Assembly: GCA_047635055.1 (NCBI GenBank)
Contig: JBLIIJ010000008.1
Coordinates: 1,540-65,539 of the forward strand
Source: Cyclobacteriaceae bacterium
Lineage (GTDB): Bacteria > Bacteroidota > Bacteroidia > Cytophagales > Cyclobacteriaceae
Length of the DNA: 64,000 nucleotides
Direction of reading: 5' to 3'
The notes under the pieces are model-generated. The model worked only from the letters and a program-made list of their open reading frames with translations. It made no database searches and was not told where the DNA came from. Each line of letters opens with the position of its first letter. Position 1 is the stretch's first letter. Positions 11,101 to 25,167 of the stretch are shown here, piece by piece. The translations under genes were made by a program, and so were the position numbers.

Positions 11101-14100
11101 CAAGAATCAGAAACAGGCGTATTGAATTGGTCGGAATCTTTATATCTCAATTCAGGTGAAAATTTAATTTTCAGACTGACGTCTAATGGGGAAGAGTTGT
11201 TTTATGGTGACATAGATGGGGCTGATAATATTGCTGACATAGATGGATCTCAAATAGTTGTTGATCAAAGCTCAGATCACTACATAAGATATAATGCATC
11301 AACAAATGAGTTCTTGGTTTATCCTATTAGTTCAATTGGCTTTCTAGGTTCCGCCCGAACAGGGGACGAAACGGGTTGGCAAGGTGATGATGATGATTTT
11401 CAAAATGAAGGTGAAGGAAATTATACATTAAGAAATATTTCTCTTTTTGATGGTGCATTTAAATTCAGAGCCAATAATGACTGGTCGATACTCAATTGGG
11501 GCGATGGCGATGCTGATGGAACCATGGAAATAGGAGGTATTGATACGGAAGTTATAGGAGGATCTTATGATATCACATTCAATGTTTACGATAGGACCTA
11601 TTTCGTTACACCTACTTTGAGCAATCCGATAATATCGTTTGCTTCACCGATTTCTAGTACAGAAATAAAACTTGTATGGGAAAATGCTGAAAACGAAACT
11701 GGTTATAATCTCTTTCGAGCACCAGACCTGCTTAACCGATCATTTGAGTTTGTTGCTCAAGTTGAAGCTGATATCACTGAGTTTACAGATTCAGGTTTAA
11801 TCCCAAATAATGGATACAGCTATATTATTCAAGTTTTCAACGACCAAATTAGCAATCAATCAGGAGAAGTTGTTACCTCAACATTCTCAAACAATATTGA
11901 AACTAATAATGAAAACATTACCCTCCTTGGAGGTTCAGGCAATGATTTTGGAAGAGATATCACTTTTGATGATCAAGGCAACTATTACGTTTTGGGTACA
12001 TTTAATGGGACAACACAAATAGCAGGAATTGGCATTGGTGCGCTTAACAATGGTCTTTTTGTGGCAAAGTATAACAGTGCACATGTAGTCCAATGGGTTT
12101 ATGACGTTGATCCTGCAGCGGGAAGTATCGATGGTGCAGACATTATCGCCAATGCAATAGGGATTGCTCCAAATGGGGAGATATACATTACAGGTTATTA
12201 CAGCGGTATTGTCAATAACGTAGCTTCTTATCAAGCAAGTACCAATAATTATGAGAATAATTTATTTCTTATTAAATTAAATCAAGAAGGAACATTATTA
12301 GATACGCGAATAATTTCAAGTCCTGGTTTTAGTTCGGGATATGACATTGATTTTGATAACGAGTCCAACGTATATGTATCAGGTATTTACAGTGGAGGCG
12401 CTACATTTTCAGGTACTAACTTATCAGGAGGAGGACCGATAGTATTGAAATGGGAGGCTGACGGATCCGAAAGCTGGGTGATTGAAGCAACTCAGTCTAC
12501 GCTTGACTTAATAGGACGCGCTTTCGGTATAGCATATGATAAGACCAATGAAAAATTATATGTAACAGGTATTAGTTACGGAGCTACAGACTTTAGCAAT
12601 AATGGCAGTGGGATTTGGAACGGTAGCGTATTGAATTACGATGCATTTTTAGCAAGCTATAATGCTGACGCATCTTTCAATTGGGTATCTGGACTAAATA
12701 GTGGTCGTACGGATGTTTCTTACGATGTGACATTGGATCCAGCAAATAACCCGATTATAGCTGGTTATTTTAATGGTGCTGCTTTAACAATAGGCTCAAA
12801 AAGTTACAATAACGAAAGTTTGTCAAATGAAATATTGATTGTTAAATATGATCAATCAGGTGAAGTGCTCAATAGTGTTGTCGCGACAAGTGGCCTGAGT
12901 GAGTACACACTTGGTATGTCTGGAAATGGAACTGATATTTTTATTACGGGATATAAAGATCCTGTAGCGACTGATTTTGCTGGGCTGATTGTTGAAAATG
13001 GTAAGGGTTTCTTAGCAAGTTTCGATGGTAATACGCTGGTGCCTAATTGGGTGGAAGTGGTTGAAGGAAACTCCATCGGTGTGAGTGTAGCCGCATCTCA
13101 AGATTACGTGTATCTAGCTGGAAGAGCGACCAATACGATTAATCTTGCTGGAAATGTCCTGTCATCGAACAATGAATCTGCGGATGCTATGTTTGGTGTT
13201 TTCGATATAAGTAGTGTAAGTACTGCGGGGCTGGTAGGCTATTATACATTTGATAATTCGTCAACAGAAGATTTTTCAGGAAACGGGAACAATGGTGTAG
13301 CTGTCAATAATCCTTTATTCTCAAAAGATAGGTTTGGAAAAAATGGGAGTTCATTTGAGCCTGAAAACAATCAAGCGTTCATTGAAATACCACATAACGG
13401 AGATTTTAATTTTACTTCTGAATTCTCTGTGGCGATGTGGGTGAGATTAAATGACTATTCTAATGAAGAGAGAGATGTCTTGTTCAAAGATGATGGTTTT
13501 GGATTGCTATCTATAAACAGAGACGGGCTTGTGGCCTATGACTGGCAAGACAGCAACAATGACAATATTGGTCTACTATCCACGGACTTGGTAGTATCAA
13601 GAAATGAATGGACATTCATCACATTGTCTATCGATGGAAATGGCAATGCAAGTATTTTTATAGACGGAGTGGCCCAAAAAAATCAATTTCAGCGTAACGC
13701 CACTAATATTGGAGCGCCGGCGACAACTTTAAATGTTTCCTTACCCGTGAATGTTGGAAATACTGCTTTCCTGTCTTCGAATGTGTTTAATGATTCTTTC
13801 CTAAGTGATGCCAATGGGGATATTGACGATGTTCGTATTTATTCTGGAGCTTCTTTAACCCAATCTGAAGTAATTGCTATTTATCAAAAAGAAATCCCTG
13901 GAGGAGCAAACAGACTGGTGGCACAATATGAATTTACGCTCGGCGACTTAAATGACATATCTGAAAATTCATTTGACGGGCTATTTAGAGATGTAAACAA
14001 TAACGCAATTGGCGCACAGTTAACTACTGGTTTAGATGGTGACTCTGATGGTGCGCTTGATTTTCAGGATAATGGAGATTATATGGAAGTATTCCATGAG

Positions 14101-17100
14101 CGTTCTATCAATTTGAGTAAAAATGTAACAGTTAATTTATGGGTTAGGCCCGACGCGGTTTCAAATGGTACCGTAGGGGATGTTCTTTTCTCAGATGCAG
14201 TAGGTACTAGGCTGATGTATGATCCGCAGAATCGAATATATTATCATTACGAAACTTCAGAAGGTGCTTTTCCAGAAATAAAGGAGACAGGCAATAGCTT
14301 AGAAATAGGAGCTTGGCAAATGATTACTTATTCTATTGATGAAAATGATAATCTAATAATTTACAAAAATGGGGTAGAGATATTAAGTAGTTTCATTAGT
14401 GATCAAGCCTATAAGCTCGCGGCAAACTTTACTGTTGCGCAAAATGATATAGCATCTCCTAGTGATTTAAGGTATATGGACGGTGCCATCGACAAGGTGT
14501 CGGTATATAAGCGAGTGTTATCTCAAGGAGAAATTGCACAAATCTTTAATGAGGATGATAAAAGGCTTTTAGCTTATTATCCTTTCGATGGAGATGTGCT
14601 TGACTATAGTGCTAATGAATATGATGGAACAGCTCAAGATCTTAGTCCTATCAATGATAGGTTCGGTGACGCGAATGATGCCTATTCCTTCAATGGATCG
14701 TCAAGTCAAGTGACCGCTGATCTGCTTAATCACCCGCAAGGCGAAGCTTCATTCACTTACATGGCTTGGATCAATCCTGCGGTGAGTTCTCAATCAGCCA
14801 CAATAATTAGCGTGGGGGAGGATATCGATAATGGAAGGTCAAGTCTTTTTATTAATGGAAATGCGCTTGCATATATTGGTAATAGCAATGATGTAACCAG
14901 TTCGATTACCATTCCCTCAGATCAATGGTCACATGTAGCCATTGCCAAAACGGGTACAAACATAGATTTCTTTTTGAATGGCAATTTTGTTGAAACACTC
15001 ACGACTAGCCCAGGACAGAACCTTCAAAGCACATCGGCAACAATAGGGTCGACCTTTGGGACACGCGAGTTCTTTAATGGTGGTATAGATGAAGTTAGAA
15101 TCTTCTCAATATTCCTTACGGGCGATGAAATAATGGCTATCTATAACGCAGAGGCACCTATTAGCTCTCTAGTCGCTGATTATCCATTATTTCAAAATGC
15201 CAATGATTTTGGTGGTAATGATTATCATGGAACAGAACTAGGAGGGGCGTTTTATAATGATGCGCTTGTGATTGGTGATAATGGTAATGACGCGGTGAGT
15301 CTTCCAAATGACGTAATGAGTGGTCTGAACGATTTTACAGTTATGACTGCCGTGAAATTTAATACCATTCATACTTCGGGCTCAGTTTCAAGTAATACCA
15401 TAATATCTGGTTCTAATGTGAATACGGATAATGCTTTCGTCTTAGGCTTAGAAACGGGTAATCAATGGTTGTTGTCTGTTGATAATAATTTTCAAAGAGT
15501 TGCAGCTAATTCCATTGAAGCTGATATGTGGTATCATATCGCTTTTGTACGGAAAGACGCGGAGATAGCTGTTTTTGTCGCCGGTCAAAATGTTGGTTCT
15601 GTATTTGTCAATAATACGCCTGTAGATGTTGGCATAGGAGGCCTGTTTTTAGGCCAAGAGCAGGATGTCTTTGGTGGAGGATTTCAGCAAGATCAAAGTC
15701 TAGCAGGTCAGTTATCAAATCTTAAATTTTTTAGTGAAGCTTTATCCACCTCTCAAATTTTGGAAATAAGTATTAAAGATACTCCTCAAGATTTGCCACC
15801 TTTAGCTCCGTCAAATGTTGTTGCGCAAGTGATTGCTCCTGGTATGGTGAGGGTTAATTGGTCAGACAATTCAGATAATGAGAGTGGCTTCTACGTAGAT
15901 TATAACGACGGATCGAGTTTCTTCACTTCGGACAGAACGAATGCGGATGTTACTAGTCTCCTTATTGAAAACTTGAGTAACGATGTTTCCTATACGTTTG
16001 ATGTACATGCGTTTAATGCAAATGGCGATGCTCAAGGAGAAAATTCGGCTACTGCCACACCAGTAGTATTAGGGGATCCTATTTCAGTTAACCCAGGCTT
16101 TCCATCACTTGATGATGAAATCACCATTACAGTTACAGTAGCAAATCTTTATCCCGTAGGTACATTGGGTACAGCAGATAAGATTTATCTACACTCTGGA
16201 CTTATTGAACCTGGAAACGAAAACGCTGGTGGTTGGGTAGCTAACGCTGAGTGGGGAGTAGATCATGGCGTAGGCTTAATGACCAATAATGGAGATGGGA
16301 CTTGGAGTATTATAATACCTGATCCGCGATCATACTACCAAGTGGCCGACGATTTTGTTGCGAGTCAAATCGCGCTTTTATTTAGAAATGCTGATGGAAC
16401 AGCATCGGGTAATGGTGCCTATAATACTGATATTGGAACCGGAGACATATTCATTGATTTGTATGATGATGTTTTATACCCGAAACCTGGTTCGGCTGTT
16501 GCAACCTTGGATGGAACGAATAACTTGTTCATAAATGATCCATATCCTAATGAAACGTCATTGATTGGTAATGCTCAGCTTACTTTGGAAGCGTGGGTCA
16601 ATACTAATCAACTTCCAGAATCAGATAACTTTTACAACATCTATACACGAGCAACGTCGGTTGGATTTCCAATAGATTTATATGTTTTGAACCAGAGTGG
16701 ATCATACTTTATCGTATTTTCTATTGAAAATGAAGATCGCACAGAAACTGGGTTTGTCAGCACGCCTATTTCAGCTGAGTTTGTTGGTCAGTGGCATCAT
16801 ATTTCTGCAACCTACGATGGGGTAGAAATGAGATTGTATGTAGATGGATATCTTGTTTCCCAGACTTCTAGTTCAGTTGTTTTACCTCTCACGACAAATT
16901 CAACTTCGGATGACATAATTGTTGGTAACTTAATGAAAGGACAAATTGATGATGTTCGTCTTTGGTCTTTTGCAAAGTCTTTAGATCAAATTCGTCGAGA
17001 AATATCATTTGAGTTAGGCGGGTCGGAGACTAATCTAGCGGCAAATTGGAATTTTAATACGATCACTGGATCCGGACCATTTTTTACTCCGGACATTACA

Positions 17101-19404
17101 GGAAATGGGAATGATCTCCGCTTAAGTACTGATGATATCCTTGGTAATCCTGATCTATCAGTAAGCGTTGTTAATAGCCCTTCAGCAGTAGTGGTCGGCG
17201 GTTCAAATTATGTAGTGACTGGAACAATAATAAATACAGATCAAGCTGAACTACCGATCAATGAACAGATGAGTTTAGTGCTATACTTATCTGAGGATAC
17301 GAATTTTGATGCTGGGGATCTAACATTAGCTACAAATTCTGAATCTGTTAATTTGGTTGTTAATTCAAGCCAATCGTATTCCATCAACTTTAATATGCCA
17401 TCGGGAATTGAGGCAAAAGGATATAACTTGATTGTGCGTGTAGATGATTCTGAACTGATAAGTGAAAGCAACGAAGCGAACAATATCAGCGTCACGCCTA
17501 TATCAGTGTTAAGTGTTTTAAATCAACCGACCAGCCTGGTATTGTCAAATGCTGATAATACAACGTTTGATTATTCTTGGAACGCTTTGGATGCGAGCGA
17601 TTGGCGATTCGATATTGCTTCTGATGATGCTTTCAATACAATTTTATCCGGGTATTCTAATATTGAAACGAATACAACAAGTGGGACAATAAGCAATCTT
17701 GATTTAGGAACGACCTATTATATGAGGGTAAGGGCTTTTGATCCAAATGTTGACCAACGAGAAAGTGGTTATTCAAATACCTCTCAAATAACAACGTTAA
17801 ATTTTGTGGATACGCAAGCACCGACAATTTCAATATCTGCTCCAGATAAATCAGAAGTCTCCTCACAGATAGTGACTATCTCAGTCTCAGATAATGTTGA
17901 GGTTGCGTATGTAGACTTTTATGTTCGTAGTGCATCAGAAAGTGCGGGTAGTGAAACAGTAAGGAGATTTGATTTTCCTTCAAATAGTTTTAACGCGGAT
18001 ATCTTGGTTAATGATTGGGATAACTTCGGAGTAACTTTTTACGCTATTGCGGGAGATGCCGAGAATAATACGACAACTTCAAACATCTTAACAATTGTCG
18101 CTGATATTCCTTCAAGCCAACAAGAAACCATTCCTGTAAATGCCACCGGATTAACTTCTGCTGATTATAAGATTTTTGCTTTCCCTTATGAGAATAAAGG
18201 AACAGCTGAGGTTGTCGACGGTGGGTTAAGTCCAATTGATTGGAGAATTCAACGATATAATGGAAACTCCAATTCTGATCAAACGACTCTTTCAGCAGGT
18301 GCGGGTTATTGGTTCTTAAAGCGAGCGAGTAGCACCAGTCTAACTTTTTCAAATGCAAGTCCGGTTTCATTAAACGGTGATCATTTTGAAATAAATTTAC
18401 GCGAAGGGTATACGCAGATAGGAAATCCATATTTAGGAGCAATTGATTGGAATGAAGTACTGATCTACAATAATCTGATTCAAGGACAGATTAGTCAAGA
18501 AATCCAAACATACTCTGGTGGCTATAGTACTGCTACCGAATTGAAAAAATACGAAGGAGGATTCGTGTTGTCAGATGCCGTAAGAAGTATTGAGATACCT
18601 ATATCTGCAATTAATAGATCTGCTCAAAATTCAGCACCACTCTTTGTACAAGATGGTGGTTGGGAGCTTCCCGTATATTTAACTGCACCGGATGAATACA
18701 ACTTTAGAGCTTCAGGCTTTGGTCAATATGATAAGGCACTAGATGGAAAGGATGGGTTTGACTTAAGAACGCCAATGCTTTTCGAGCAATACGTGAGAGC
18801 AGAGTTTGTAGAGAAGCCTACGTTGGAAGGAAAAAGAATATCTAAAAGCATCCATTCAAACAATGCGAATGATATTTGGATCATGAAAGTGTACAGTCAT
18901 TTCTTTGAAGGAGTAACCATGAATATTGAAATTGGTGATTTGCCTGAATTAGCTCACGGAGAAATAATAGCTATGCTTGATTTGCAAACTGGACATCATG
19001 AGATTCTCACTGATAAGTTCAATTATTCATTCAATTATGCTGACGGCTATGAGATCAAATTCATTAAAGGCTCTCCTGAATTTATTAAGCAGAATATCCT
19101 CTTGAATGAACTGGTATTTAGTGAGATTTATCCAAATCCATCTAATGGGGTTATAAACTTAGCATTAAACACACCAGCCTTCGAGAACGCCCAAAACGTA
19201 CACTTTAATCTATTTGATTTATCCGGTCAACTTGTTTTAAGCCAAGATATTTTATTGAATTCAGGCTATCAGGAAATTCAATTAAGTATGACCGAAAATG
19301 GATTATCTAATGGTCTTTATCTGTTGGAAATAGAAATATCACATAATTCTGTTCAGTTACTTGAAAATATCACGAAAAAGGTGTTTTTGAAGAGAAGTGA
19401 ATAA
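5191..19404 (+). CDS. Giant (4,737-aa) T9SS-secreted mosaic adhesin or lectin-like surface protein
   Basis: One uninterrupted 14.2-kb ORF. Signal peptide MKLIAALGFSLLLVINTLSAQ (likely true start ATG 5221). Seven FG-GAP-like blades at about nt 5290-6410 (ISGDGNRVVVGG, ISEDGKRIAIA, LSGDGLSLLVS, INDDGSIIAAGS...). Ten LamG/Laminin_G_3-like lectin modules each end in a G-x-[IL]-D-D-[IV]-x-[IVLF]-[YFWH]-type motif (GTIDDITFY, GVIDDIKIY, GSLDDIQFW, GELDDFRLH, GGLDDIKVF, GDIDDVRIY, GAIDKVSVY, GGIDEVRIF, GQLSNLKFF, GQIDDVRLW). Two SusE/F-like beta-sandwiches (KFRANDTWDVNWG about 8701-8740; KFRANNDWSILNWG about 11461-11505). Also CUB (about 9373-9705), SBBP-type propeller repeats (about 11920-13215), three FN3 (about 11620-11890, 15790-16070, 17520-17800), CARDB-like (about 17150-17510), Ig-like (about 17810-18110), and a type A T9SS C-terminal domain (about 19117-19401: IYPNPSNGVINL...GLYLLEIEI...). 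Confidence 0.9.
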   Translation: MMNLLNKSINMKLIAALGFSLLLVINTLSAQEDWQEIGEIPGLSGAAFSGLHVDISGDGNRVVVGGNYQTNSASRSPYIAVYEYNGTSWNLVNSLISLPIRANDAKISEDGKRIAIAVPAETGIDFAYVAVYEDTGSNWVQLGSNIFSAQTDGSFGKKISASSDCLRIAIGYQSDDTNANNAGSVLVYSYEGSDWVQAGQTIFGSQSNSNTGIDVALSGDGLSLLVSDRLATNEGQLTIFGFENEQWIQKGNIIKSGVAESGFGSTLSINDDGSIIAAGSSFVTNTSRASQYVRVFELIGSFWGQRGQDLKSNIREDLYGSSIALNSSGSRVVVSAGPFDLTESPVQGLIYAYEFENESWKELGSNIKISLGSSGGPDVAISSDGLMICAGDPIGIEFAGRTVVFQVISDLLANYSFTGSFLDNSINSNIATNSGGVLTTDRFGKSESAIFFDGVSQVSSPLTSQPTAISLWYKADQSGGTIFSWGEEESLGYQYGYQLSSTNAGLLFYLSLFDGANSPYSTTVSLASVSDNDWHQFVMTNESGVLRFYIDNVFVQSYTPSSDQIYWEGSSGQLVFGESFQGTIDDITFYSEALTSLEIEEAFVDAGGAVLIADYGFTGNVNDNSGLSNNGVNFGATFTTDRFGFGSSALSFFSDYVSVNNTESLADLSGSYSASMWVNIQSATPPAQMTIISKGLNPDDDTNTNLSVYVNTDLTLTFFWEDEFDQDNIITTTESLAPFRYYLISVTVDTESNISSVYVDKELVAFETFLSPPSSNIDPLYIGAAFTENTRGNFFFGVIDDIKIYNNKVLSLEEISTAYEVNGWNPDLLGDFTFNGGAGDESNNANIGSTIGSGISLAQNRFGNDNNAFLFGGAGYVAHPHIDSYTLGQTSDFSISGWFNSSSTSNGVMFDKSDGSVGYFVQLSANGSIQFSLNSTDESFNLNTNAGYNDGKWHYFVAQADRNANISIIVDGFNIFSNSLITENVGFDTSEDLLIGANAGAGNANPNSLFSGSLDDIQFWSRLLTAKEVGDVYNNGVASVSIVGSTLSTNIDLELQGSLGQTFSAWSTVIDVLEPGPVNFYYNGTSESIYGDSDLDGLLEVGGTDISISKAGQYYVSVRPSTNEYVISEITSVGVLGDAIGGSDVDDTNLIHLGSGVYLIESINLSDGEIKFRANDTWDVNWGDDDPNGIVSAQLLATFEEESPAFVSFGGNQTQVISNPDASGINTSGSVVETVRGSELFGGTFFDVEEKLELTTESTITLKVWAPEEGFTFRIKLEDKSNSNIFQEFDLPIPVSQEWTVLTFSLNNDVLGMPAASQAYDRIVFFPGYDAPTEGSVFYFDDVILGYENATVFGGNIPITEGKYVIFFDVVENVYSIFNSSKSGINLLDQEIIASTGLYTDSGGAENDYTSYEDYLTTIYPEIGGEAIQLEFTEFNVETNYDFLYVFDGTDIGAPLIGVYSGNINESGSNVPDIITATNNNGALTTRFVSDQLVNTSGWQANISTVLLPAPEIVAEYFFNDNVEDNSGLGNNGVNNNAVYVEGRLPIDLYGGAYSFDGSTAYLAVQDSWSLSRATENDFSVSGWFKSSDNGILFDKSDGFTGYFGALQSTGSLFFYMVEDGFGVASVETTSTWNDGNWHFFTMEADRDTGLAIYVDNNLDASSNGVSDAFSVTTSEDLLIGVAGQAGNTNLNGFFSGELDDFRLHSKVLTPSEKFELYNVDNWFDSVNLLSYLKYSGNDLDEQSPGNSGITFTGTLQSDRFENESSALFLDGISQYNAHTSEVFLQASKPSLDQSGSISVWINPESNPTGTYTIYQFVNPGTFARFMTELNLESDGRLGVTMWGVNSSNLTMPSNAQIKLQSWTHVAATWDVPNGVLEVYINGVLDNSVDISTVVPVPLESGMNFIKGYNLTSSANYYQGGLDDIKVFKNRLNGQQVLEIFNEGGWPSQLVTDITAIISSDTDSREVTLRQESETGVLNWSESLYLNSGENLIFRLTSNGEELFYGDIDGADNIADIDGSQIVVDQSSDHYIRYNASTNEFLVYPISSIGFLGSARTGDETGWQGDDDDFQNEGEGNYTLRNISLFDGAFKFRANNDWSILNWGDGDADGTMEIGGIDTEVIGGSYDITFNVYDRTYFVTPTLSNPIISFASPISSTEIKLVWENAENETGYNLFRAPDLLNRSFEFVAQVEADITEFTDSGLIPNNGYSYIIQVFNDQISNQSGEVVTSTFSNNIETNNENITLLGGSGNDFGRDITFDDQGNYYVLGTFNGTTQIAGIGIGALNNGLFVAKYNSAHVVQWVYDVDPAAGSIDGADIIANAIGIAPNGEIYITGYYSGIVNNVASYQASTNNYENNLFLIKLNQEGTLLDTRIISSPGFSSGYDIDFDNESNVYVSGIYSGGATFSGTNLSGGGPIVLKWEADGSESWVIEATQSTLDLIGRAFGIAYDKTNEKLYVTGISYGATDFSNNGSGIWNGSVLNYDAFLASYNADASFNWVSGLNSGRTDVSYDVTLDPANNPIIAGYFNGAALTIGSKSYNNESLSNEILIVKYDQSGEVLNSVVATSGLSEYTLGMSGNGTDIFITGYKDPVATDFAGLIVENGKGFLASFDGNTLVPNWVEVVEGNSIGVSVAASQDYVYLAGRATNTINLAGNVLSSNNESADAMFGVFDISSVSTAGLVGYYTFDNSSTEDFSGNGNNGVAVNNPLFSKDRFGKNGSSFEPENNQAFIEIPHNGDFNFTSEFSVAMWVRLNDYSNEERDVLFKDDGFGLLSINRDGLVAYDWQDSNNDNIGLLSTDLVVSRNEWTFITLSIDGNGNASIFIDGVAQKNQFQRNATNIGAPATTLNVSLPVNVGNTAFLSSNVFNDSFLSDANGDIDDVRIYSGASLTQSEVIAIYQKEIPGGANRLVAQYEFTLGDLNDISENSFDGLFRDVNNNAIGAQLTTGLDGDSDGALDFQDNGDYMEVFHERSINLSKNVTVNLWVRPDAVSNGTVGDVLFSDAVGTRLMYDPQNRIYYHYETSEGAFPEIKETGNSLEIGAWQMITYSIDENDNLIIYKNGVEILSSFISDQAYKLAANFTVAQNDIASPSDLRYMDGAIDKVSVYKRVLSQGEIAQIFNEDDKRLLAYYPFDGDVLDYSANEYDGTAQDLSPINDRFGDANDAYSFNGSSSQVTADLLNHPQGEASFTYMAWINPAVSSQSATIISVGEDIDNGRSSLFINGNALAYIGNSNDVTSSITIPSDQWSHVAIAKTGTNIDFFLNGNFVETLTTSPGQNLQSTSATIGSTFGTREFFNGGIDEVRIFSIFLTGDEIMAIYNAEAPISSLVADYPLFQNANDFGGNDYHGTELGGAFYNDALVIGDNGNDAVSLPNDVMSGLNDFTVMTAVKFNTIHTSGSVSSNTIISGSNVNTDNAFVLGLETGNQWLLSVDNNFQRVAANSIEADMWYHIAFVRKDAEIAVFVAGQNVGSVFVNNTPVDVGIGGLFLGQEQDVFGGGFQQDQSLAGQLSNLKFFSEALSTSQILEISIKDTPQDLPPLAPSNVVAQVIAPGMVRVNWSDNSDNESGFYVDYNDGSSFFTSDRTNADVTSLLIENLSNDVSYTFDVHAFNANGDAQGENSATATPVVLGDPISVNPGFPSLDDEITITVTVANLYPVGTLGTADKIYLHSGLIEPGNENAGGWVANAEWGVDHGVGLMTNNGDGTWSIIIPDPRSYYQVADDFVASQIALLFRNADGTASGNGAYNTDIGTGDIFIDLYDDVLYPKPGSAVATLDGTNNLFINDPYPNETSLIGNAQLTLEAWVNTNQLPESDNFYNIYTRATSVGFPIDLYVLNQSGSYFIVFSIENEDRTETGFVSTPISAEFVGQWHHISATYDGVEMRLYVDGYLVSQTSSSVVLPLTTNSTSDDIIVGNLMKGQIDDVRLWSFAKSLDQIRREISFELGGSETNLAANWNFNTITGSGPFFTPDITGNGNDLRLSTDDILGNPDLSVSVVNSPSAVVVGGSNYVVTGTIINTDQAELPINEQMSLVLYLSEDTNFDAGDLTLATNSESVNLVVNSSQSYSINFNMPSGIEAKGYNLIVRVDDSELISESNEANNISVTPISVLSVLNQPTSLVLSNADNTTFDYSWNALDASDWRFDIASDDAFNTILSGYSNIETNTTSGTISNLDLGTTYYMRVRAFDPNVDQRESGYSNTSQITTLNFVDTQAPTISISAPDKSEVSSQIVTISVSDNVEVAYVDFYVRSASESAGSETVRRFDFPSNSFNADILVNDWDNFGVTFYAIAGDAENNTTTSNILTIVADIPSSQQETIPVNATGLTSADYKIFAFPYENKGTAEVVDGGLSPIDWRIQRYNGNSNSDQTTLSAGAGYWFLKRASSTSLTFSNASPVSLNGDHFEINLREGYTQIGNPYLGAIDWNEVLIYNNLIQGQISQEIQTYSGGYSTATELKKYEGGFVLSDAVRSIEIPISAINRSAQNSAPLFVQDGGWELPVYLTAPDEYNFRASGFGQYDKALDGKDGFDLRTPMLFEQYVRAEFVEKPTLEGKRISKSIHSNNANDIWIMKVYSHFFEGVTMNIEIGDLPELAHGEIIAMLDLQTGHHEILTDKFNYSFNYADGYEIKFIKGSPEFIKQNILLNELVFSEIYPNPSNGVINLALNTPAFENAQNVHFNLFDLSGQLVLSQDILLNSGYQEIQLSMTENGLSNGLYLLEIEISHNSVQLLENITKKVFLKRSE
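8300..8760 (+). repeat. Intragenic paralogous module, copy A (Ig-like plus SusE/F-like beta-sandwich)
   Basis: ...YGDSDLDGLLEVGGTDISISKAGQYYVSVRPSTNEYVISEITSVGVLGDA...GEIKFRANDTWDVNWGDDDPNG is collinear with copy B at about 11040-11530. Confidence 0.5.
11040..11530 (+). repeat. Intragenic paralogous module, copy B
   Basis: ...YGDIDGADNIADIDGSQIVVDQSSDHYIRYNASTNEFLVYPISSIGFLGSA...GAFKFRANNDWSILNWGDGDADG is collinear with copy A. Protein-level similarity only; the DNA has diverged. Confidence 0.5.
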
Positions 19405-19409
19405 TTAGT

Positions 19410-19417
19410 TAAATTTG
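19410..19417 (+). promoter_or_regulatory. Candidate -7 box (TAnnTTTG) in front of the small caspase gene
   Basis: TAAATTTG at 19410-19417, within the 39-nt gap after the giant ORF and 27 nt upstream of ATG 19444. Confidence 0.35.
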
Positions 19418-19443
19418 TTACTTAACCACTAAAAATAAATGTC

Positions 19444-20454
19444 ATGAAAAATATATCTGCTTTATTAGCATTCATATTGATGAGCTTTGGCGCCTCGAGT
19501 CAAACCTCAGAGGCGACTAGTAATTCTGTTGATCTAGGACCATTGTTGTTCAAAATGTTAAATGCTAAATCAACCGTTTCTGAAACCCCGTTAGTAACAA
19601 AAAATACCTCTACTGAGAATTTCGTAGAAATAGTTCTAGGGTCTGATGTCGATACGGATATCCCAGTATTCCAAAACAAAAATCCTAATGCTTTCGCCGT
19701 TGTTATCGGTAACGCTCAGTACACACACACTGGGAATGTAGATTATGCCGTGCATGATGCACGAGCTATGAAACAGTATTTGGTAAACACCATGGGTTTT
19801 TATGAGGAAAATGTCTTCTTAGAAGAAAACGCAACCCAAAGGGATTTTCAAAAATGGTTCGGAAACGACAGAAGCCATAAAGGAAGGTTGTTCAATCTTG
19901 CTTATGAGAACATAGAAACCAACACTGATCTTTTTATATTCTATGCTGGTCACGGAGCGCCAGACCCTAATACGAAATCGGGGTATTTTTTACCGACCGA
20001 TTGTGATCCTAACTTCATTGATGTAACAGCATACCCGGCCGAACTTTTATTCGGAAACATAAATAAGATTGGTGCTAAATCTACCACCATCGTCATGGAT
20101 GCATGTTTTTCCGGAAGCGGAATAATAACAGGTCTGTCAGCAGTAGCGATTAAACCAAAAGATTTTGGAGATATAGAAAATGGTGTGGTCATCACATCAT
20201 CATCGGGAACCCAACCTTCAGCTTGGTATGAAGATAAAAATCATGGGTTATTTACCTACTATTTCCTGAAAGCGCTAAAAGAACCATCAACAGACGTTGA
20301 TGGTAATGGAGAAGTAACAGTAGATGAAATTTATTCTTATGTAGAGAATATGGTTCCAAGAAAGGCACGTGGACTAAGAAACTTGGATCAAAACCCAACA
20401 ATTCGTGGAATGGGAAGAGATAGAGTTTTATTTACAAGAGCGTCAGGAGAATAG
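19444..20454 (+). CDS. Secreted peptidase C14 (caspase/orthocaspase-like) protein
   Basis: Signal peptide MKNISALLAFILMSFGASSQ. p20-like core: AFAVVIGNAQY...AVHDARAMKQYL...FIFYAGHGAP (His170, CAC 19951-19953)...TIVMDACFSGSG (Cys221, TGT 20104-20106). Confidence 0.8.
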   Translation: MKNISALLAFILMSFGASSQTSEATSNSVDLGPLLFKMLNAKSTVSETPLVTKNTSTENFVEIVLGSDVDTDIPVFQNKNPNAFAVVIGNAQYTHTGNVDYAVHDARAMKQYLVNTMGFYEENVFLEENATQRDFQKWFGNDRSHKGRLFNLAYENIETNTDLFIFYAGHGAPDPNTKSGYFLPTDCDPNFIDVTAYPAELLFGNINKIGAKSTTIVMDACFSGSGIITGLSAVAIKPKDFGDIENGVVITSSSGTQPSAWYEDKNHGLFTYYFLKALKEPSTDVDGNGEVTVDEIYSYVENMVPRKARGLRNLDQNPTIRGMGRDRVLFTRASGE

Positions 20455-20475
20455 TCTAAAATATAAAGTTGTTTA

Positions 20476-20501
20476 AGCCCCATTTATTAATGGGGTTTTT
20501 T
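20476..20501 (+). terminator. Intrinsic terminator-like hairpin after the small caspase gene
   Basis: AGCCCCA-tttattaa-TGGGGTT followed by TTTTT, ending 9 nt before ATG 20510. Confidence 0.55.
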
Positions 20502-20509
20502 ATTTGCTT

Positions 20510-21376
20510 ATGAATTTAAAAATATTAATTGTTGGTTTTATTCTGATTTCATTAAACCTTAAGGCTCAGAAAATAAGAAGGGTTAGTGGTGACTATTCTA
20601 TGAAGATTGAGTCGAATATGTCGGAGAATGAAGCGGTGAGCCAAGTAGTGCAGCAAGCTAAAATCAATGCACTAGAAAATGAATTTGGTACACGGGTTGG
20701 AATGATGAATCAAATACGAATGGAAAATGCGAATGGACAAACGAATACCTCCTTTAGCAGTATTTCTAACAGTCTTATCAAAGGCATTTGGCTCAAAGAT
20801 TTGGAGGAACCAGATATTCAAAAGTTTGATCAAGACGGGGATAGGTGGATTAAAGCTAAGGTAGTTGGTCGAGCAAGAAGTTTAGAAAATGCAGGTGTTT
20901 CTTTAGAGGTTAAAACTTTAAAATGCCCCAATATAAACTGTGAATCTCAAGACTTCAATCAAAATGATGGTCTCATACTTTATTTTAGGAGTCCAGAAAG
21001 TGGCTACTTGAGTGCATATATTGATGATAAGTCTACCACTTTTATGACTATGCCATATATGTCTATGGATGGAGGAAGTGTTCCTATTGAAGCAGACAAG
21101 GAATATTATTTGTTTGTTGCGGATGAGAAGTACAATTATTTTAATCAAGACAAAGCCGAGATCGATGAGTACTATTTGTATACTCCACATCAATATGAAG
21201 TTGATTTGCTCTACGTTCTTTTTTCGAAGGAACAATTTAGTAAACCAATCTTAGAGAATAATGGTCCGGGGATACCAAAGACCACTACATCCAAGGCGTT
21301 TAATGATTGGTTGGCGGAGATTATGAGTTATGAAAATATGTTTATGGAGGTAATAGATATTAATATTTCGAATTAG
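20510..21376 (+). CDS. Secreted protein with an LPP20-like N-terminal part and a DUF4384-like C-terminal part
   Basis: Signal peptide MNLKILIVGFILISLNLKAQ (ATG 20510 preferred over TTG 20504). SENEAVSQVVQQAKINALENEFGTRV resembles LPP20/FlgT-N type lipoprotein domains. DGLILYFRSPESGYLSAYIDDKSTTFMTMPY...IEADKEYYLF...LLYVLFSKEQFSKP resembles DUF4384, a domain often found fused to bacterial caspases. Both calls are from memory. Confidence 0.5.
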   Translation: MNLKILIVGFILISLNLKAQKIRRVSGDYSMKIESNMSENEAVSQVVQQAKINALENEFGTRVGMMNQIRMENANGQTNTSFSSISNSLIKGIWLKDLEEPDIQKFDQDGDRWIKAKVVGRARSLENAGVSLEVKTLKCPNINCESQDFNQNDGLILYFRSPESGYLSAYIDDKSTTFMTMPYMSMDGGSVPIEADKEYYLFVADEKYNYFNQDKAEIDEYYLYTPHQYEVDLLYVLFSKEQFSKPILENNGPGIPKTTTSKAFNDWLAEIMSYENMFMEVIDINISN

Positions 21377-21381
21377 ATTTT

Positions 21382-24132
21382 ATGATAAAAACCGTTTCAT
21401 TTTGCATACTATTGTTATTTGGGACTGATATTTTAGCTCAATCTGACAAGAAGTTTCTCGTTGTTGAACCACAAGGGCATAATGCACTTGTCAATGACTT
21501 AGTATATAGTTCCTTAACTCGAGAGTTAATCTCTGTAAGTGATGATAAGACTGTCAGGTTATGGGACATTGAAGAGGATATATTGTCCCGTACCATTCGG
21601 TTAAAAGCAGATCCTTCTGGGCCGATAGGTATGTTGTATGCCGCAGCAATTTCCCCTGATGGCAGATATCTTGCAGTTGCAGGCTACAGCCAATTTAATG
21701 ATATCAAAATCATTGATTTGCAACGAAATGAAATAGTGGTAGTGCTGCCTAAGCATAAGAATATAATTACCGCTTTAGCGTTTTCCCCTGATGGAAAATA
21801 CTTAGCGAGTGCAAGTGCTGATGAGTCAATAGTGATATGGAAGAGTAGTACAAATTATCCTTATGAATTTGCGTACTCACTCTATCAACACCAAGCTAAA
21901 GTGAATGATTTGGCATTTTCACCCGATGGAAAATCTTTATTATCCGTGTCAGATGATGAAACCTGTAGAATGTGGAATGTAGCCAATTTCGAATCAGAGC
22001 CACAAATTTTTAAAGGTCATCTTGGGCCGATCAAAAGAGTGGCTGCCGGAAAGATGGGGTTTCTTACCGGAGGTGAAAAAGGAATAGTGAATTTATGGAG
22101 TTGGAATGGCGCTTTAACGAAACAGATTATACAATTTGGCAGTCCTGTTGTAGATATTTCAACTTCTTCACATGGGGATTATGCATTTGTAAGTGGGGAT
22201 AAACAAATATTGATAAACCTAAAAAGTACAGGTTACAAGCCTTTATTCTCTGACAATCAAAACGTTTCTGCATCGTATTTCACTAAAGATCTTAAACTTA
22301 TTCTCGCTCAAGGAGCTCAAGGAAATCTTTTAAAAATAGACTTGAAGACATTATCTCCAGAGGCAGTGCTTCGAGGGCAGGGGCTATCAATAAACAAGCT
22401 TTTCATTAAGGATCAGCAACTTGGTGCCACAATAGACTTAGGTGTGGATCCTTCGTTAATTTTTGATTTCCAACAATCAAAAACGATAAGAGATAAATCA
22501 AAAATGAAAGGGTTTACATCCGCTGTAAAAACAGATGGGACTTTCAGTTTTCAATTATTAGGAGAACAACAACTTAATTTCGGAGCTTCTTTTGGTATTA
22601 CCAATTCTGATCGTGATGGAAGAATATTAAGTTATACACTTTTATCCGATGGGAAGGTCATCGTTGGAAGCGACAGAACATTAAAAGTGTATAATGGGAA
22701 TGGGGAGTTACTGCAAGTGCTAGAAGGTCATAATGGTCAAGTGCTAGACATAGTGAGTAATGACGAATATGTCTTTACTAATGGCTCTGATCAGACAATA
22801 AAAGTGTGGTCAAAATCTGATTGGACTTTAAAATACACCCTGTTCATAACAAGAGATTATGATTGGATTTTATGGAGTAATGATGGAGCCTATACTGCCA
22901 GCGCTGGTGGGGAACAGTATTTGAACTGGCAAGTCAACAAAAATGAAAATGGATTGGCGGAGCATTTTGATGTTTCAACATACAATAAACAGTTTTTAAC
23001 GGAATCCATAAAAGATTTAAACAATAAAAGGGATAATACAATTACGGAAACAATCGTACTACCTGATAAACCAGAGGTAAGATGGACCAGTCATGAAGTG
23101 TTTCAAACAGAAACTGAGGAAGATAGAGTAAGAGTTAAAGCCTCAATATATAGTGATCAACCAATCGAAAAAGTAAGAATTTTAGTAAGTGGAACACCTT
23201 TGGCGGGTAAGAGATCGGTAAGTGATATTCGGTCAATTGATGAGGTGATTGAATTAAATAGCTATAAAACGACAGTTCAACTTTTCGTAAGTACCGCTGA
23301 CGCTAAAATTGTCTCTGAAAAACGGGTGTTTATTAACTCCAACTTCATAAATAGTACAACGTCAAGTACAGTAATTATAGATCCAGAAAATAAGCCGAAT
23401 CTGTATTTCGTAGGAATTGGTGTTAGTAAGTTTCAGAATAGTGAATTTGACTTGACATATGCTGACGATGATGCCGTGTCGATTCACGAGATATTTACAT
23501 CAGGTTCAAGTCCTGTTTATAACAAAGTTTCAAGTAAACTCTTACTGAATGAAGAGGCGACTAAAGATAATATCATGGCGCATTTCAGGTCTTTGGCTGA
23601 AGTTGTAACGCCGAAAGATCAAGTCATTTTATTTATAGCGAGTCATGGAATAAATGACGAAGGGTTTTATTACGTGCTTACTCATGAGGCAGATAAAAAT
23701 GATCTGACGGGTACCTGTTTGAATTGGAGTGAATTGGCTGAAGCGCTGAGCTTGCTGCCTTGTAGGGTACTTATGTTCTTGGATACGTGTCACAGCGGTG
23801 CACTAGGTAATAACCTAACTTCCAATGATAATTACTTGAAGAACACGGAAGCTCTGAGAGAATTAGGTTCGGTAGAAGTAGGTGTAGTGATTATGTCAGG
23901 GTCTACTGGCGATGAAAGTAGCCTAGAAAGTGCTGAATGGGAGCATGGTGTATTTACTTTGAGCCTTATAAAAGGACTAAAGGATAAGGAGGCAGATATA
24001 AGAGGAGATGGACTTATTTTTTTAAGAGAGTTAGACTTTTTCGTCTCAAACAATGTCTATGATCTCACGAAGGGTAAACAAAACCCGACAACACAAAAAC
24101 CTAGTACGATAAGTAAACTTTTAATATATTAA
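21382..24132 (+). CDS. Secreted WD40-repeat protein with a C-terminal peptidase C14 (caspase-like) domain
   Basis: Signal peptide MIKTVSFCILLLFGTDILAQ. Classical WD40 repeats across aa ~30-500 (DDKTVRLWDI, SPDGRYLAVAG, SPDGKYLASASADESIVIW, SPDGKSLLSVSDDETCRMWNV, GSDQTIKVWS). Beta-rich linker at aa ~560-660. Caspase core at aa ~672-916: LYFVGIGVSKF...DDDAVSIHEIF...ILFIASHG (His755, CAT 23644-23646)...LMFLDTCHSGALG (Cys803, TGT 23788-23790). Starts 5 nt after the previous gene. Confidence 0.85.
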   Translation: MIKTVSFCILLLFGTDILAQSDKKFLVVEPQGHNALVNDLVYSSLTRELISVSDDKTVRLWDIEEDILSRTIRLKADPSGPIGMLYAAAISPDGRYLAVAGYSQFNDIKIIDLQRNEIVVVLPKHKNIITALAFSPDGKYLASASADESIVIWKSSTNYPYEFAYSLYQHQAKVNDLAFSPDGKSLLSVSDDETCRMWNVANFESEPQIFKGHLGPIKRVAAGKMGFLTGGEKGIVNLWSWNGALTKQIIQFGSPVVDISTSSHGDYAFVSGDKQILINLKSTGYKPLFSDNQNVSASYFTKDLKLILAQGAQGNLLKIDLKTLSPEAVLRGQGLSINKLFIKDQQLGATIDLGVDPSLIFDFQQSKTIRDKSKMKGFTSAVKTDGTFSFQLLGEQQLNFGASFGITNSDRDGRILSYTLLSDGKVIVGSDRTLKVYNGNGELLQVLEGHNGQVLDIVSNDEYVFTNGSDQTIKVWSKSDWTLKYTLFITRDYDWILWSNDGAYTASAGGEQYLNWQVNKNENGLAEHFDVSTYNKQFLTESIKDLNNKRDNTITETIVLPDKPEVRWTSHEVFQTETEEDRVRVKASIYSDQPIEKVRILVSGTPLAGKRSVSDIRSIDEVIELNSYKTTVQLFVSTADAKIVSEKRVFINSNFINSTTSSTVIIDPENKPNLYFVGIGVSKFQNSEFDLTYADDDAVSIHEIFTSGSSPVYNKVSSKLLLNEEATKDNIMAHFRSLAEVVTPKDQVILFIASHGINDEGFYYVLTHEADKNDLTGTCLNWSELAEALSLLPCRVLMFLDTCHSGALGNNLTSNDNYLKNTEALRELGSVEVGVVIMSGSTGDESSLESAEWEHGVFTLSLIKGLKDKEADIRGDGLIFLRELDFFVSNNVYDLTKGKQNPTTQKPSTISKLLIY

Positions 24133-24150
24133 CATAAAAAAGCATAAGCA

Positions 24151-24789
24151 ATGAAGCAATACCTAAAATTTACCGCTGGATTTTTAATGCTGTTACTGTT
24201 TGTCACTACAGTACAAGGGCAAAAGATCAAAAATAAGGATTTTAAAACAAAACTAAAGCTTGCCAAAAAGGAAGGTAAAGAGCTGGAGAAAGATGATTGG
24301 TATGTATCCCCGGGTGATTTACCTTTAGAGAAGCAGCTTGAAAAAGCCTATCAAAAGGCACTGCAAGAGGACGAAAATGGATATCCTGAATACATCATTG
24401 CATCTGGAAATGCAGTGGCACAAACACAATCTGCTGCTAAAATGCAAGCACAGGAAATCGCTAAATTAGAAATCGCTAATCAACTCAGCTCTCAAATCGC
24501 TGCGACCATTGATAACCAGATAGCCAACAATCAACTGAACCAAGAAGATGCAGCTACATTACAAAAGATGGTTGCAGCGGCAAAGAATGTTATTTCACAA
24601 AAAATTGGGAGAACGGTAAAACTTGTGGAGATGTACAGAAAACTTAAGAACAAGAATGTGGAATGTCAAGTCCGTGTTGGTTATAGTATGGAATTGGCCC
24701 GACAAGCTGCAATATCTTCTATGAAGGAGCAACTACAAGCAGATGCAAGCATAGCGGCAGATAAACTTGATAAAATATTAGACTTTTAG
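24151..24789 (+). CDS. Secreted helical, coiled-coil-like protein, LPP20-like
   Basis: Signal peptide MKQYLKFTAGFLMLLLFVTTVQGQ. IIASGNAVAQTQSAAKMQAQEIAKLEIANQLSSQIAATIDNQI resembles LPP20-family lipoproteins. Starts 18 nt after the WD40-caspase gene. Confidence 0.5.
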   Translation: MKQYLKFTAGFLMLLLFVTTVQGQKIKNKDFKTKLKLAKKEGKELEKDDWYVSPGDLPLEKQLEKAYQKALQEDENGYPEYIIASGNAVAQTQSAAKMQAQEIAKLEIANQLSSQIAATIDNQIANNQLNQEDAATLQKMVAAAKNVISQKIGRTVKLVEMYRKLKNKNVECQVRVGYSMELARQAAISSMKEQLQADASIAADKLDKILDF

Positions 24790-24826
24790 GATATAGAAAT
24801 TTTTAATATTCAATTTAGGCTTTAAA

Positions 24827-24856
24827 ACGCTATCAATAATTTGATAGTGTTTTTTG
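24827..24856 (+). terminator. Intrinsic terminator closing the caspase gene cluster
   Basis: ACGCTATCAA-taat-TTGATAGTGT (9 of 10 bp) followed by TTTTT. Confidence 0.65.
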
Positions 24857-25052: not shown

Positions 25053-25133
25053 GCCTGAGTGGCGGAACTGGTAGACGCGCACGACTCAAACTCGTGTTCC
25101 TTCGGAGTGCCGGTTCGATTCCGGCCTCAGGTA
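25053..25133 (+). tRNA. tRNA-Leu, anticodon CAA, class II; no encoded CCA
   Basis: Hand-folded: acceptor GCCTGAG/CTCAGGT (G1.U wobble), D arm GCGG-AACTGGTAG-ACGC, anticodon stem CACGA/TCGTG with loop CTCAAAC (CAA), variable arm with TCC-ttcg-GGA, T arm GCCGG-TTCGATT-CCGGC, discriminator A. Confidence 0.85.
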
Positions 25134-25137
25134 CAAG

Positions 25138-25167
25138 GCCCTTCTCATTTTGAGAAGGGCTTTTTTT
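25138..25167 (+). terminator. Intrinsic terminator after tRNA-Leu(CAA)
   Basis: GCCCTTCTC-atttt-GAGAAGGGC (9 bp, perfect) followed by TTTTTTT. Confidence 0.8.

Follow-up and report, generated by a model that had tools for sequence, protein, structure and literature searches.

The stretch of DNA analyzed here, called the window, comprises 64,000 nucleotides (nt) of contig JBLIIJ010000008.1 (assembly GCA_047635055.1, positions 1,540 to 65,539) from a Cyclobacteriaceae bacterium. Identical or near-identical proteins in metagenome-assembled genomes point to an uncultured marine member of this family (order Cytophagales). The window carries four consecutive open reading frames (ORF1 to ORF4), which very likely form an exported, active, and conserved module consisting of two caspase-type proteases (ORF1 and ORF3) and two small partner proteins (ORF2 and ORF4). 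The explanation proposed as a whole, that is, a conserved chromosomal periplasmic proteolysis module of Bacteroidota acting in the substrate-selective processing of envelope proteins, is tentative and is placed just short of an even chance. Its functional part, the substrate-selective processing, is quite possible but on balance doubtful.

The four genes are located in the window as follows (lengths in amino acids, aa):
19444-20454, + strand: ORF1, 336 aa, small C14 caspase-type protease, predicted to be exported
20510-21376, + strand: ORF2, 288 aa, partner predicted to be exported; alternative start TTG at 20504
21382-24132, + strand: ORF3, 916 aa, WD40-caspase predicted to be exported
24151-24789, + strand: ORF4, 212 aa, partner predicted to be exported, marker of the module

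The gaps ahead of ORF1, ORF2, ORF3, and ORF4 are 39, 55, 5, and 18 nt, respectively. The original prediction, made from the letters of the stretch, had described four co-directional ORFs at these coordinates with gaps of 5 and 18 nt between the last three, and it matches exactly.

In order to compare the locus with those of other organisms, a genome scan with one genome per species was used. It gave 534 stretches encoding a relative of ORF4, the best 80 of which were analyzed, with their ORFs labeled by iterative profile searches. Caspases encoded near an ORF4-like gene in these loci are referred to below as linked caspases.

The Two Caspase-Type Proteases

The Pfam model Peptidase_C14 matches ORF1 at aa 84-322 (nt 19693-20409, E 3.5e-16, 60 bits) and ORF3 at aa 679-908 (nt 23416-24105, E 7.3e-13, 49.2 bits), against a cut-off of 21.4. 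In the case of ORF3, the protease domain is preceded by WD40 (E 2.8e-42). Pfam thus agrees with the domains proposed earlier, C14 in ORF1 and WD40 with C14 in ORF3. The relevant features are:
19756-19758, + strand: ORF1, S1-pocket Asp105
19951-19953, + strand: ORF1, catalytic His170, motif YAGHG
20098-20100, + strand: ORF1, S1-pocket Asp219, two residues ahead of the Cys
20104-20106, + strand: ORF1, catalytic Cys221, motif DACFSG
21466-23016, + strand: ORF3, WD40 beta-propeller region, about aa 29-545
23017-23391, + strand: ORF3, linker domain, aa 546-670
23644-23646, + strand: ORF3, catalytic His755, motif IASHG
23782-23784, + strand: ORF3, Asp801 of the DTC motif
23788-23790, + strand: ORF3, catalytic Cys803, motif DTCHSG

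In alignments, His170 and Cys221 of ORF1 coincide with the catalytic residues of Arabidopsis metacaspase-9 (PDB 8a53) and with His755 and Cys803 of ORF3, the two caspase domains being 25% identical. The motifs and codon positions given for both dyads in the original prediction are correct. The solved structures nearest to the profile of the module's caspase domains are the metacaspases AtMC4, Yca1, and AtMC9, together with GSU0716 of Geobacter. Among 74 unique linked caspase domains, the His is retained in every one and the Cys in 72, while Asp105 and Asp219 (ORF1 numbering) are each found in 73. With the threshold passed and both the dyad and the S1 pocket present, ORF1 and ORF3 are assigned to family C14. 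In characterized metacaspases, two Asp residues form an acidic S1 pocket which determines specificity for Arg or Lys (PMC6426788). Since this pair is kept, cleavage after Arg or Lys is predicted for ORF1 and ORF3, as in the metacaspase/orthocaspase type C14B.

Two further elements fit a regulated enzyme. A canonical EF-hand-like loop, DVDGNGEVTVDE, lies in the caspase domain of ORF1 (aa 284-295, nt 20293-20328), a degenerate one is found in ORF3 (aa 872-883, nt 23995-24030), and the module caspases of the WG type have none. In the PDB, the caspase profile also has weak matches to calcium-binding proteins with EF-hands (1jfj and 2m7n, E ~6e-4). Together, the loop and these matches suggest a calcium control of the caspase. 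The second element is a basic stretch, 'ARG..IKPK', which is conserved in most module caspases 10-20 residues after the catalytic Cys (columns ~175-200 of alignment A3). It stands at the position of the caspase inter-subunit linker and could be an autoprocessing site. In ORF1, this element is located at:
20149-20160, + strand: IKPK

Export Signals and Compartment

Signal peptides were deduced from the sequence pattern and its conservation in homologs, using a rule-based heuristic. The first version was permissive and flagged about half of the background ORFs; it was replaced by a strict rule with four demands, namely a basic residue among positions 1-9, a hydrophobic core of nine uncharged residues, a small residue at -1, and Gln at +1. 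All four proteins pass it, with a basic residue, an uncharged hydrophobic core, and then Ala, Gly, or Ser followed by Gln (the slash marks the predicted cleavage site):
19444-19500, + strand: ORF1 signal peptide, ..FGASS/Q
20510-20569, + strand: ORF2 signal peptide, ..NLKA/Q
21382-21438, + strand: ORF3 signal peptide, ..DILA/Q
24151-24219, + strand: ORF4 signal peptide, ..TVQG/Q

Of the 29 ORFs in the window with 200 aa or more, 10 pass the strict rule; no clearly cytoplasmic gene does so. Seven of the ten form a contiguous run (1484-24789) that includes ORF1 to ORF4 and the giant protein encoded upstream of them. Gln at +1 of signal-peptidase-I substrates is known in Bacteroidetes as the Q-rule (PMC5837995, PMC10653852). 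In the homologs, the permissive heuristic detects the leader pattern in 78 of 80 linked caspases (68 of them with Gln at +1), in 50 of 53 ORF2-like proteins, and in 84 of 87 ORF4-like proteins. The leader sequences themselves are not conserved, though the pattern is kept. ORF1 to ORF4 are therefore predicted to carry leaders of the Sec/signal-peptidase-I type with Gln at +1, and the signal-peptide-like N-termini claimed earlier for all four products are retained.

No T9SS (type IX secretion system) sorting domain, either Por_Secre_tail or a type-B C-terminal domain, was detected in ORF1 to ORF4 with Pfam, NCBIfam, and jackhmmer. None of the four proteins has a lipobox Cys at its predicted cleavage site or close to it, and none has a transmembrane segment other than the leader. 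ORF2 has a pair of cysteines, Cys139 and Cys144 (nt 20924-20941), which is invariant among close relatives; in the 48 sequences of the wider ORF2-like set, conservation is at least 95% for the first Cys and at least 80% for the second. The conservation of this pair fits an oxidizing compartment. The original prediction had left the choice between periplasm and cell surface. As both a T9SS sorting domain and a lipobox are missing, the periplasm is the most likely location of the four proteins and the surface is not favored.

The Partner Proteins

The two partners were earlier labeled as LPP20- and DUF4384-like. This label is plausible, with weak support at the level of families and models, and remains under the formal thresholds for ORF2 and ORF4 themselves. 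The domains are:
20573-20875, + strand: ORF2, LPP20/SHS2-like N-domain, about aa 22-122
20957-21229, + strand: ORF2, DUF4384-like beta domain, about aa 150-240
24220-24291, + strand: ORF4, Lys-rich helix, aa 24-47
24391-24687, + strand: ORF4, SHS2/LPP20-like core, aa 81-179

ORF2 has no significant Pfam match. It reaches LPP20 (PF02169) at E 0.18 and 12.7 bits, under the gathering score of 25.9, and does not match DUF4384 (PF14326). Among 15 close members of its family, DUF4384 is matched in 10 (best 6e-5) and LPP20 in 9, in the N-terminal part (best 7.6e-4). Distant ORF2-like genes match DUF4384 at 1.6e-3, and a split version of 158 aa does so at 6.6e-7, above the cut-off. A homolog with 53% identity is named 'DUF4384 domain-containing' by NCBI. 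In published proteins, DUF4384 is fused to proteases and kinases; in addition, some Csx30 proteins end in this domain, Csx30 being the substrate of the caspase-like Csx29 (bioRxiv 10.1101/2022.08.17.504292). The N-domain of the ORF2 model matches Tip-alpha of Helicobacter pylori with a Foldseek probability of 0.97-0.99, and the C-terminal half, in this low-confidence model, looks like a beta-sandwich. A GTRVGMMNQ..TNTSF block is striking in close relatives of ORF2 and is not conserved in the wider family.

ORF4 belongs to no Pfam or NCBIfam family, and only one of 31 family members matches LPP20 in Pfam (0.037). Its AlphaFold model has a predicted local distance difference test score (pLDDT) of 81.7, and the best Foldseek matches are Tip-alpha, Lpp20 (HP1456), and HP1454 of H. 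pylori, with a probability of ~0.9 but E ~1e-2. The strand-helix-strand-strand order in the models of both partners fits an SHS2-like fold, which in Lpp20, FlgP, and FlgT forms periplasmic scaffolds beside the outer membrane (PMC12222027). When the ORF2 and ORF4 profiles were searched against PDB sequences, nothing matched even at E 10. The ORF4-like family is large, with 967 clusters at 50% identity for E values up to 1e-3 and 719 for E values up to 1e-10. Its members are nearly all stand-alone proteins of 200-230 aa and, where named by the source, are called 'hypothetical protein'.

Conservation across Bacteroidota

The best 80 loci belong to Cytophagales (Cyclobacteriaceae, Roseivirgaceae, Reichenbachiella, Flammeovirgaceae, and Ohtaekwangia), Bacteroidales, Prolixibacteraceae, Lentimicrobium, and others, including two cultured species, Reichenbachiella agariperforans and R. 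versicolor (L030 and L072). Linkage was counted in the 47 loci with at least 4 kb on either side of the ORF4-like gene. In 43 of them, a C14 gene lies within 6 kb of this gene, 39 times on the same strand; 32 have an ORF2-like gene, and 31 have both. The set is conserved well beyond chance. The entity that is widely conserved, as judged from these comparisons, is a core of two or three genes, in which the ORF4-like gene is joined by a caspase whose sensor domain can be exchanged and, in many cases, by an ORF2-like partner.

In the commonest layout, the ORF4-like gene is followed by the ORF2-like gene and then by a caspase of ~750 aa with seven N-terminal WG-beta repeats, and in other loci there are WD40-, TPR-, or CARDB-caspases. 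By N-terminal type, the linked caspases comprise 31 with WG repeats, 24 with WD40, 10 of other types, and 10 short ones. The type of the partner covaries with that of the caspase. ORF2-like proteins accompany the WG caspases and the WD40 clade of the window, and another WD40-caspase clade is paired with an exported family of ~621 aa in place of the ORF2-like partner. This family (L002, 10350-12215, - strand; L051, 10558-12393; and 18 further ORFs) has no Pfam assignment, and profile comparison shows no similarity to the ORF2 and ORF4 profiles.

The recurrent neighbors of the module are housekeeping genes, and a plasmid search found no plasmid copy. Three pairs of loci, L038/L058, L025/L053, and L017/L018, come each from the same metagenome-assembled genome (MAG) and have an ORF4-like gene in each locus, which means two copies. 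In the first two pairs, a WG caspase is accompanied by an ORF2-like gene at one locus, and the 621-aa family stands at the other with no caspase next to it; the contigs of L017 and L018 are too short to show a caspase. The relatives of ORF1 are often stand-alone exported caspases without ORF2- or ORF4-like neighbors (L087 and L088).

The sole 'phage' match is L089 (MT839828.1, 4,003 bp), recorded as 'UNVERIFIED Bacteriophage sp.' from human feces. It contains a truncated ORF4-like gene, an ORF2-like gene, and a gene of a ~500-aa family beside an integrase fragment. Carriage by a phage was rejected, as the entry looks bacterial (Bacteroidales) and is probably a fragment misfiled as phage.

Other genes recur at these loci. 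A gene for a sigma factor of the extracytoplasmic function (ECF) type and a 225-aa gene lie between the ORF4-like and ORF2-like genes in L016 (10759-12040) and in five further loci. The ~500-aa exported family has 15 ORFs in 14 loci (e.g., L016, 12060-13571; L089, 2036-3583) and none in the window. Its Cys..His..Asp pattern (YCDCEDRA ... NHIASAV ... CDPTY) resembles the core of transglutaminase-like cysteine proteases, and a Pfam scan of the L016 member gave no match.

Transcription Units and the Giant Adhesin

The features that flank the four genes are:
5191-19404, + strand: giant T9SS cargo/adhesin gene, 4,737 aa, immediately 5' of ORF1
20475-20498, + strand: terminator-like hairpin, a 10-bp stem and then a T run, between ORF1 and ORF2; consensus match only
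24824-24853, + strand: terminator-like hairpin 3' of ORF4, closing the unit ORF2 to ORF4; consensus match only

A scan of the window by consensus match found no terminator-like hairpin between the giant gene and ORF1. The hairpins after ORF1 and after ORF4, the lack of one ahead of ORF1, and the gaps of 5 and 18 nt indicate that the quartet is probably made of two transcription units, ORF1 with the adhesin gene and the core operon ORF2-ORF3-ORF4. Reading the quartet as a single set holds for the tight unit ORF2 to ORF4, whereas the hairpin at 20475-20498 would set ORF1 apart. The two-unit reading agrees with the comparative picture, in which ORF1 accompanies the adhesin gene and ORF2 to ORF4 stay close together. 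The GC (guanine plus cytosine) content is not anomalous.

In Pfam, the giant protein shows Laminin_G_3 in at least 10 stretches, Pentaxin, fn3, CUB, and CARDB. Its Por_Secre_tail at aa 4646-4721 makes it a T9SS cargo, as had been proposed for the 4,737-aa upstream product. The exact order of giant adhesin, small caspase, ORF2, WD40-caspase, and ORF4 is found only in the subclade of the window. A homologous giant gene ends just 5' of the ORF1 ortholog in L001, L006, L010, L011, and L086. In the last of these, the arrangement is still kept, although ORF1 is only 48% identical and the adhesin has different domains. The double caspase and the adhesin thus appear, by gene order, as features of one subclade and as a local elaboration. 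The co-conservation that the original prediction proposed to check applies to the widespread core of ORF4-like, caspase, and ORF2-like genes, and the exact quartet with its adhesin is restricted to this subclade. Near other modules, a jackhmmer search aimed at T9SS sorting domains retrieved only close relatives of the C-terminal domain of the giant protein itself, a result with no bearing on an enrichment of T9SS cargo at these loci.

Directly 3' of the module, there is a tRNA-Leu(CAA) gene (25053-25134, + strand), followed by a strong terminator-like hairpin with a 13-bp stem (25135-25163). Just 5' of the giant adhesin gene, an ORF of 279 aa (4330-5169, + strand) begins with a Q-rule signal peptide, carries a hydrophobic stretch and a Pro-rich tail at the C-terminal end, and is without a Pfam match. 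Its N-terminal domain of ~110 aa is common to secreted neighbors of the Bacteroidales caspase modules, whose C-terminal domain is FGE-sulfatase (L041, 6281-7273; L077, 11711-12775) or Fib_succ_major (L085, L065, L073, L078, L068, L046, and L084). An identity of the window ORF as an FGE-sulfatase was rejected, because the similarity is confined to the shared N-terminal domain and Pfam is blank.

Possible Functions of the Module

In the proposed processing of envelope proteins, the exchangeable N-terminal repeat domain (WD40 here; WG, TPR, or CARDB elsewhere) would select the protein to be cut or sense a ligand, and the C14 domain would cut after Arg or Lys. The SHS2/LPP20-fold partners, ORF4-like and ORF2-like, would position, gate, or restrain the protease near the outer membrane. 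In the subclade of the window only, ORF1, as a minimal second caspase, would trim or release the giant T9SS adhesin during its passage through the envelope. The persistent pairing of ORF1 with this adhesin suggests a dedicated trimming or release and, by analogy, a role similar to that of LapG of Pseudomonas, a periplasmic Ca-dependent cysteine protease which cleaves the giant adhesin LapA.

Several points speak against this proposal. Outside the subclade, no adhesin accompanies the module, and thus adhesin processing cannot be its general role. A role in recognition or in an arms race would account at least equally well for the exchange of sensor domains and for the occurrence of several paralogous modules per genome. 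The signal-peptide calls rest on a home-made heuristic and not on SignalP. Concerning the partners, the AlphaFold 2 model of ORF2 has low confidence (pLDDT 61), and the LPP20 fold of ORF2 and ORF4 is assigned from Foldseek matches with E ~1e-2 and TM scores of 0.28-0.52. Profile comparison of the ORF2 and ORF4 families shows no relationship beyond the leader, and a basic 'bait' or cleavage site conserved universally in the partners was not found across the whole family.

The swapped sensors (WG, WD40, TPR, and CARDB) placed before a conserved protease also lead to an unlikely but serious alternative, the surveillance of the envelope in biological conflicts. The repeat domain would detect a periplasmic invader (phage proteins, effectors of predators or of the type VI secretion system, or bacteriocins), the caspase would destroy the invader or, abortively, the cell's own envelope, and the SHS2 partners would be inhibitors, baits, or effectors. 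The two ORF4-like loci with differing neighbors in some MAGs and the secreted C-type-lectin-like neighbors (FGE-sulfatase and Fib_succ_major) recurring by Bacteroidales modules are in line with it. The same applies to the weak PADLOC 'caspase' matches of both proteases and to the presence of DUF4384 in some Csx30, the substrate of the CRISPR-associated Csx29. On the contrary, the module sits in a stable housekeeping context of the chromosome, in no defense island, and is absent from plasmids; it includes no nucleoside triphosphatase (NTPase), gasdermin, nuclease, or other known effector. In addition, PADLOC is blank for ORF2 and ORF4, and the NCBIfam model for EACC1-associated caspases stays below its cut-off.

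A combined view, which we consider improbable, is that of a periplasmic counterpart of the cytoplasmic immune or death pathways driven by caspases. A receptor domain would sense a foreign or damaged-self molecule of the envelope and free the Arg/Lys caspase, with the SHS2 partners as gatekeepers or targets and, in the subclade, with a coupling to adhesin release. If true, it would be the first caspase-driven device for surveillance or cell fate outside the bacterial cytoplasm.

Bacteroidota are rich in exported peptidases, and many relatives of ORF1 are stand-alone exported caspases (such as those of L087 and L088). ORF1 and ORF3 might then be general periplasmic or nutritional peptidases for imported or misfolded proteins, with unrelated envelope proteins as neighbors. 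This has a low probability, given the tight linkage to the ORF4-like gene (gaps of 5-18 nt here, 43 of the 47 loci overall), the fusion of protein-binding repeats to the protease, and the covariation of partner and caspase types.

A role in envelope signaling has a slightly lower probability still. By analogy with DegS/RseA and Csx29/Csx30, the periplasmic caspase would respond to a periplasmic cue by cleaving a membrane-anchored regulator, for instance an anti-sigma factor. The ECF-type sigma gene with its 225-aa neighbor does recur in six loci, and DUF4384 is found in Csx30-type and RseA-like proteins and as the extracytoplasmic domain of Ser/Thr kinases. However, there is no sigma/anti-sigma pair at the module of the window, the association concerns a small minority of loci, and, apart from the leader, ORF2 and ORF4 are free of transmembrane segments.

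Finally, it is hardly credible that the hydrophobic N-termini stay uncleaved, with the proteins either in the cytoplasm or anchored in the membrane and facing inward, as is the case for other bacterial caspases. In favor of this view, N-terminal transmembrane helices and signal peptides could not be told apart in a 2012 survey (PMC3501461). Against it stand the canonical n-h-c pattern with small residues at -3/-1 and Gln at +1, which even very divergent homologs keep, the Cys pair conserved in the ORF2 family, and the typically extracytoplasmic nature of the LPP20 and DUF4384 families.

Bacterial caspase homologs have been studied almost only as cytoplasmic proteases of death or defense. The module described here offers a compact and genetically tractable gene set, in which predicted active caspases would be placed in the periplasm with two partner families, one of which, the ORF4-like family (~1,000 clusters at 50% identity), is not covered by a Pfam model. 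It may serve as an entry point to roles of the caspase fold in the envelope, that is, adhesin maturation or release, envelope quality control, and surveillance.

Comparison with Known Systems

The cytoplasmic caspase effectors (type III-E Csx29/Craspase, gasdermin-activating, and EACC1-associated) resemble the module in coupling a caspase-fold protease to a sensor. They differ in their predicted compartment and in their partners, as the module has no CRISPR, gasdermin, NTPase, or EACC1 component. The best NCBIfam model is caspase_w_EACC1 (NF047832), with 81.7 and 58.4 bits against a cut-off of 140. PADLOC-DB 2.0 returned a generic 'caspase' profile (2.5e-11 and 9e-7) and a HEAT-ARM match driven by WD40, gave no match for ORF2 and ORF4, and the composition of none of its known anti-phage systems was reached. 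On these searches, ORF1 and ORF3 are placed outside any characterized caspase system.

For the partners, Foldseek ranks Lpp20 (HP1456), HP1454, and Tip-alpha first as structural matches, both for ORF4 and for the N-domain of ORF2. Unlike the lipoprotein Lpp20, neither ORF2 nor ORF4 has a lipobox, and their sequence similarity stays below the Pfam thresholds. To our knowledge, neither Lpp20 nor FlgP has been linked to proteases. The members of the Lpp20/FlgP/FlgT group are small exported proteins, encoded in small operons, which oligomerize close to the outer membrane (PMC12222027).

LapG and LapA provide a likeness for the pair of ORF1 and the adhesin only, that is, a periplasmic cysteine protease with a giant surface adhesin. 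The dependence on Ca may also be common, given the EF-hand-like loop of ORF1. LapG is transglutaminase-like (BTLCP) and ORF1 is C14, and the cleavage of the adhesin is only a proposal here. Moreover, LapA is a substrate of the type I secretion system under the control of LapD and cyclic di-GMP, whereas the giant protein belongs to the T9SS cargo and a LapD-like gene is missing here.

Gingipains and PorU are clan CD proteases which act in the envelope of Bacteroidota, where they process T9SS cargo and pilins. They show that caspase-fold cysteine proteases work outside the cytoplasm in the same phylum; the gingipains are Arg/Lys-specific, as predicted for ORF1 and ORF3, and PorU processes T9SS cargo. 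They differ in belonging to family C25 and in being T9SS cargo with a C-terminal sorting domain, which the C14 proteins ORF1 and ORF3 do not have.

The closest relatives are the orthocaspases and metacaspase-like proteins (MEROPS C14B; e.g., MaOC1 of Microcystis and GSU0716 of Geobacter), which share the catalytic domain, the dyad, and the two acidic S1 residues. Bacteroidota account for about one-eighth of the bacterial orthocaspases (PMC6426788). No functional study of those of Bacteroidota was found in the open-access literature, and the module, the ORF4-like family, and the LPP20-fold partners were not described in open-access full texts, though a description elsewhere is possible. The view expressed in the original prediction that bacterial caspase-like proteases with described roles act in the cytoplasm has to be qualified, since exported metacaspases are already on record; its statement that such a set has no described function is in line with the absence of the module from these texts. 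The 2012 survey listed prokaryotic metacaspases with N-terminal transmembrane segments or signal peptides, 'extracellular' members, and multi-metacaspase operons in Bacteroidetes, with WD40, TPR, and FGE-sulfatase fusions being common (PMC3501461), and WD40-metacaspases with signal peptides were flagged in Psychroflexus torquis (PMC3914696).

As in the modules compared here, WD40 and TPR fusions, paralogs, and operons with several caspases are frequent among orthocaspases. However, those with described biochemistry are treated as cytosolic, whereas a cleavable Sec leader is predicted here. In their typical WD40 fusions, the caspase is N-terminal and often accompanied by a NACHT NTPase, whereas in ORF3 it is C-terminal and there is no NTPase. 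The dedicated SHS2-fold partners are a feature of the module. Conclusively, the novelty, on the evidence of these comparisons, lies not in exported metacaspases per se but in exported, sensor-fused orthocaspases with dedicated partners of a predicted SHS2 fold.

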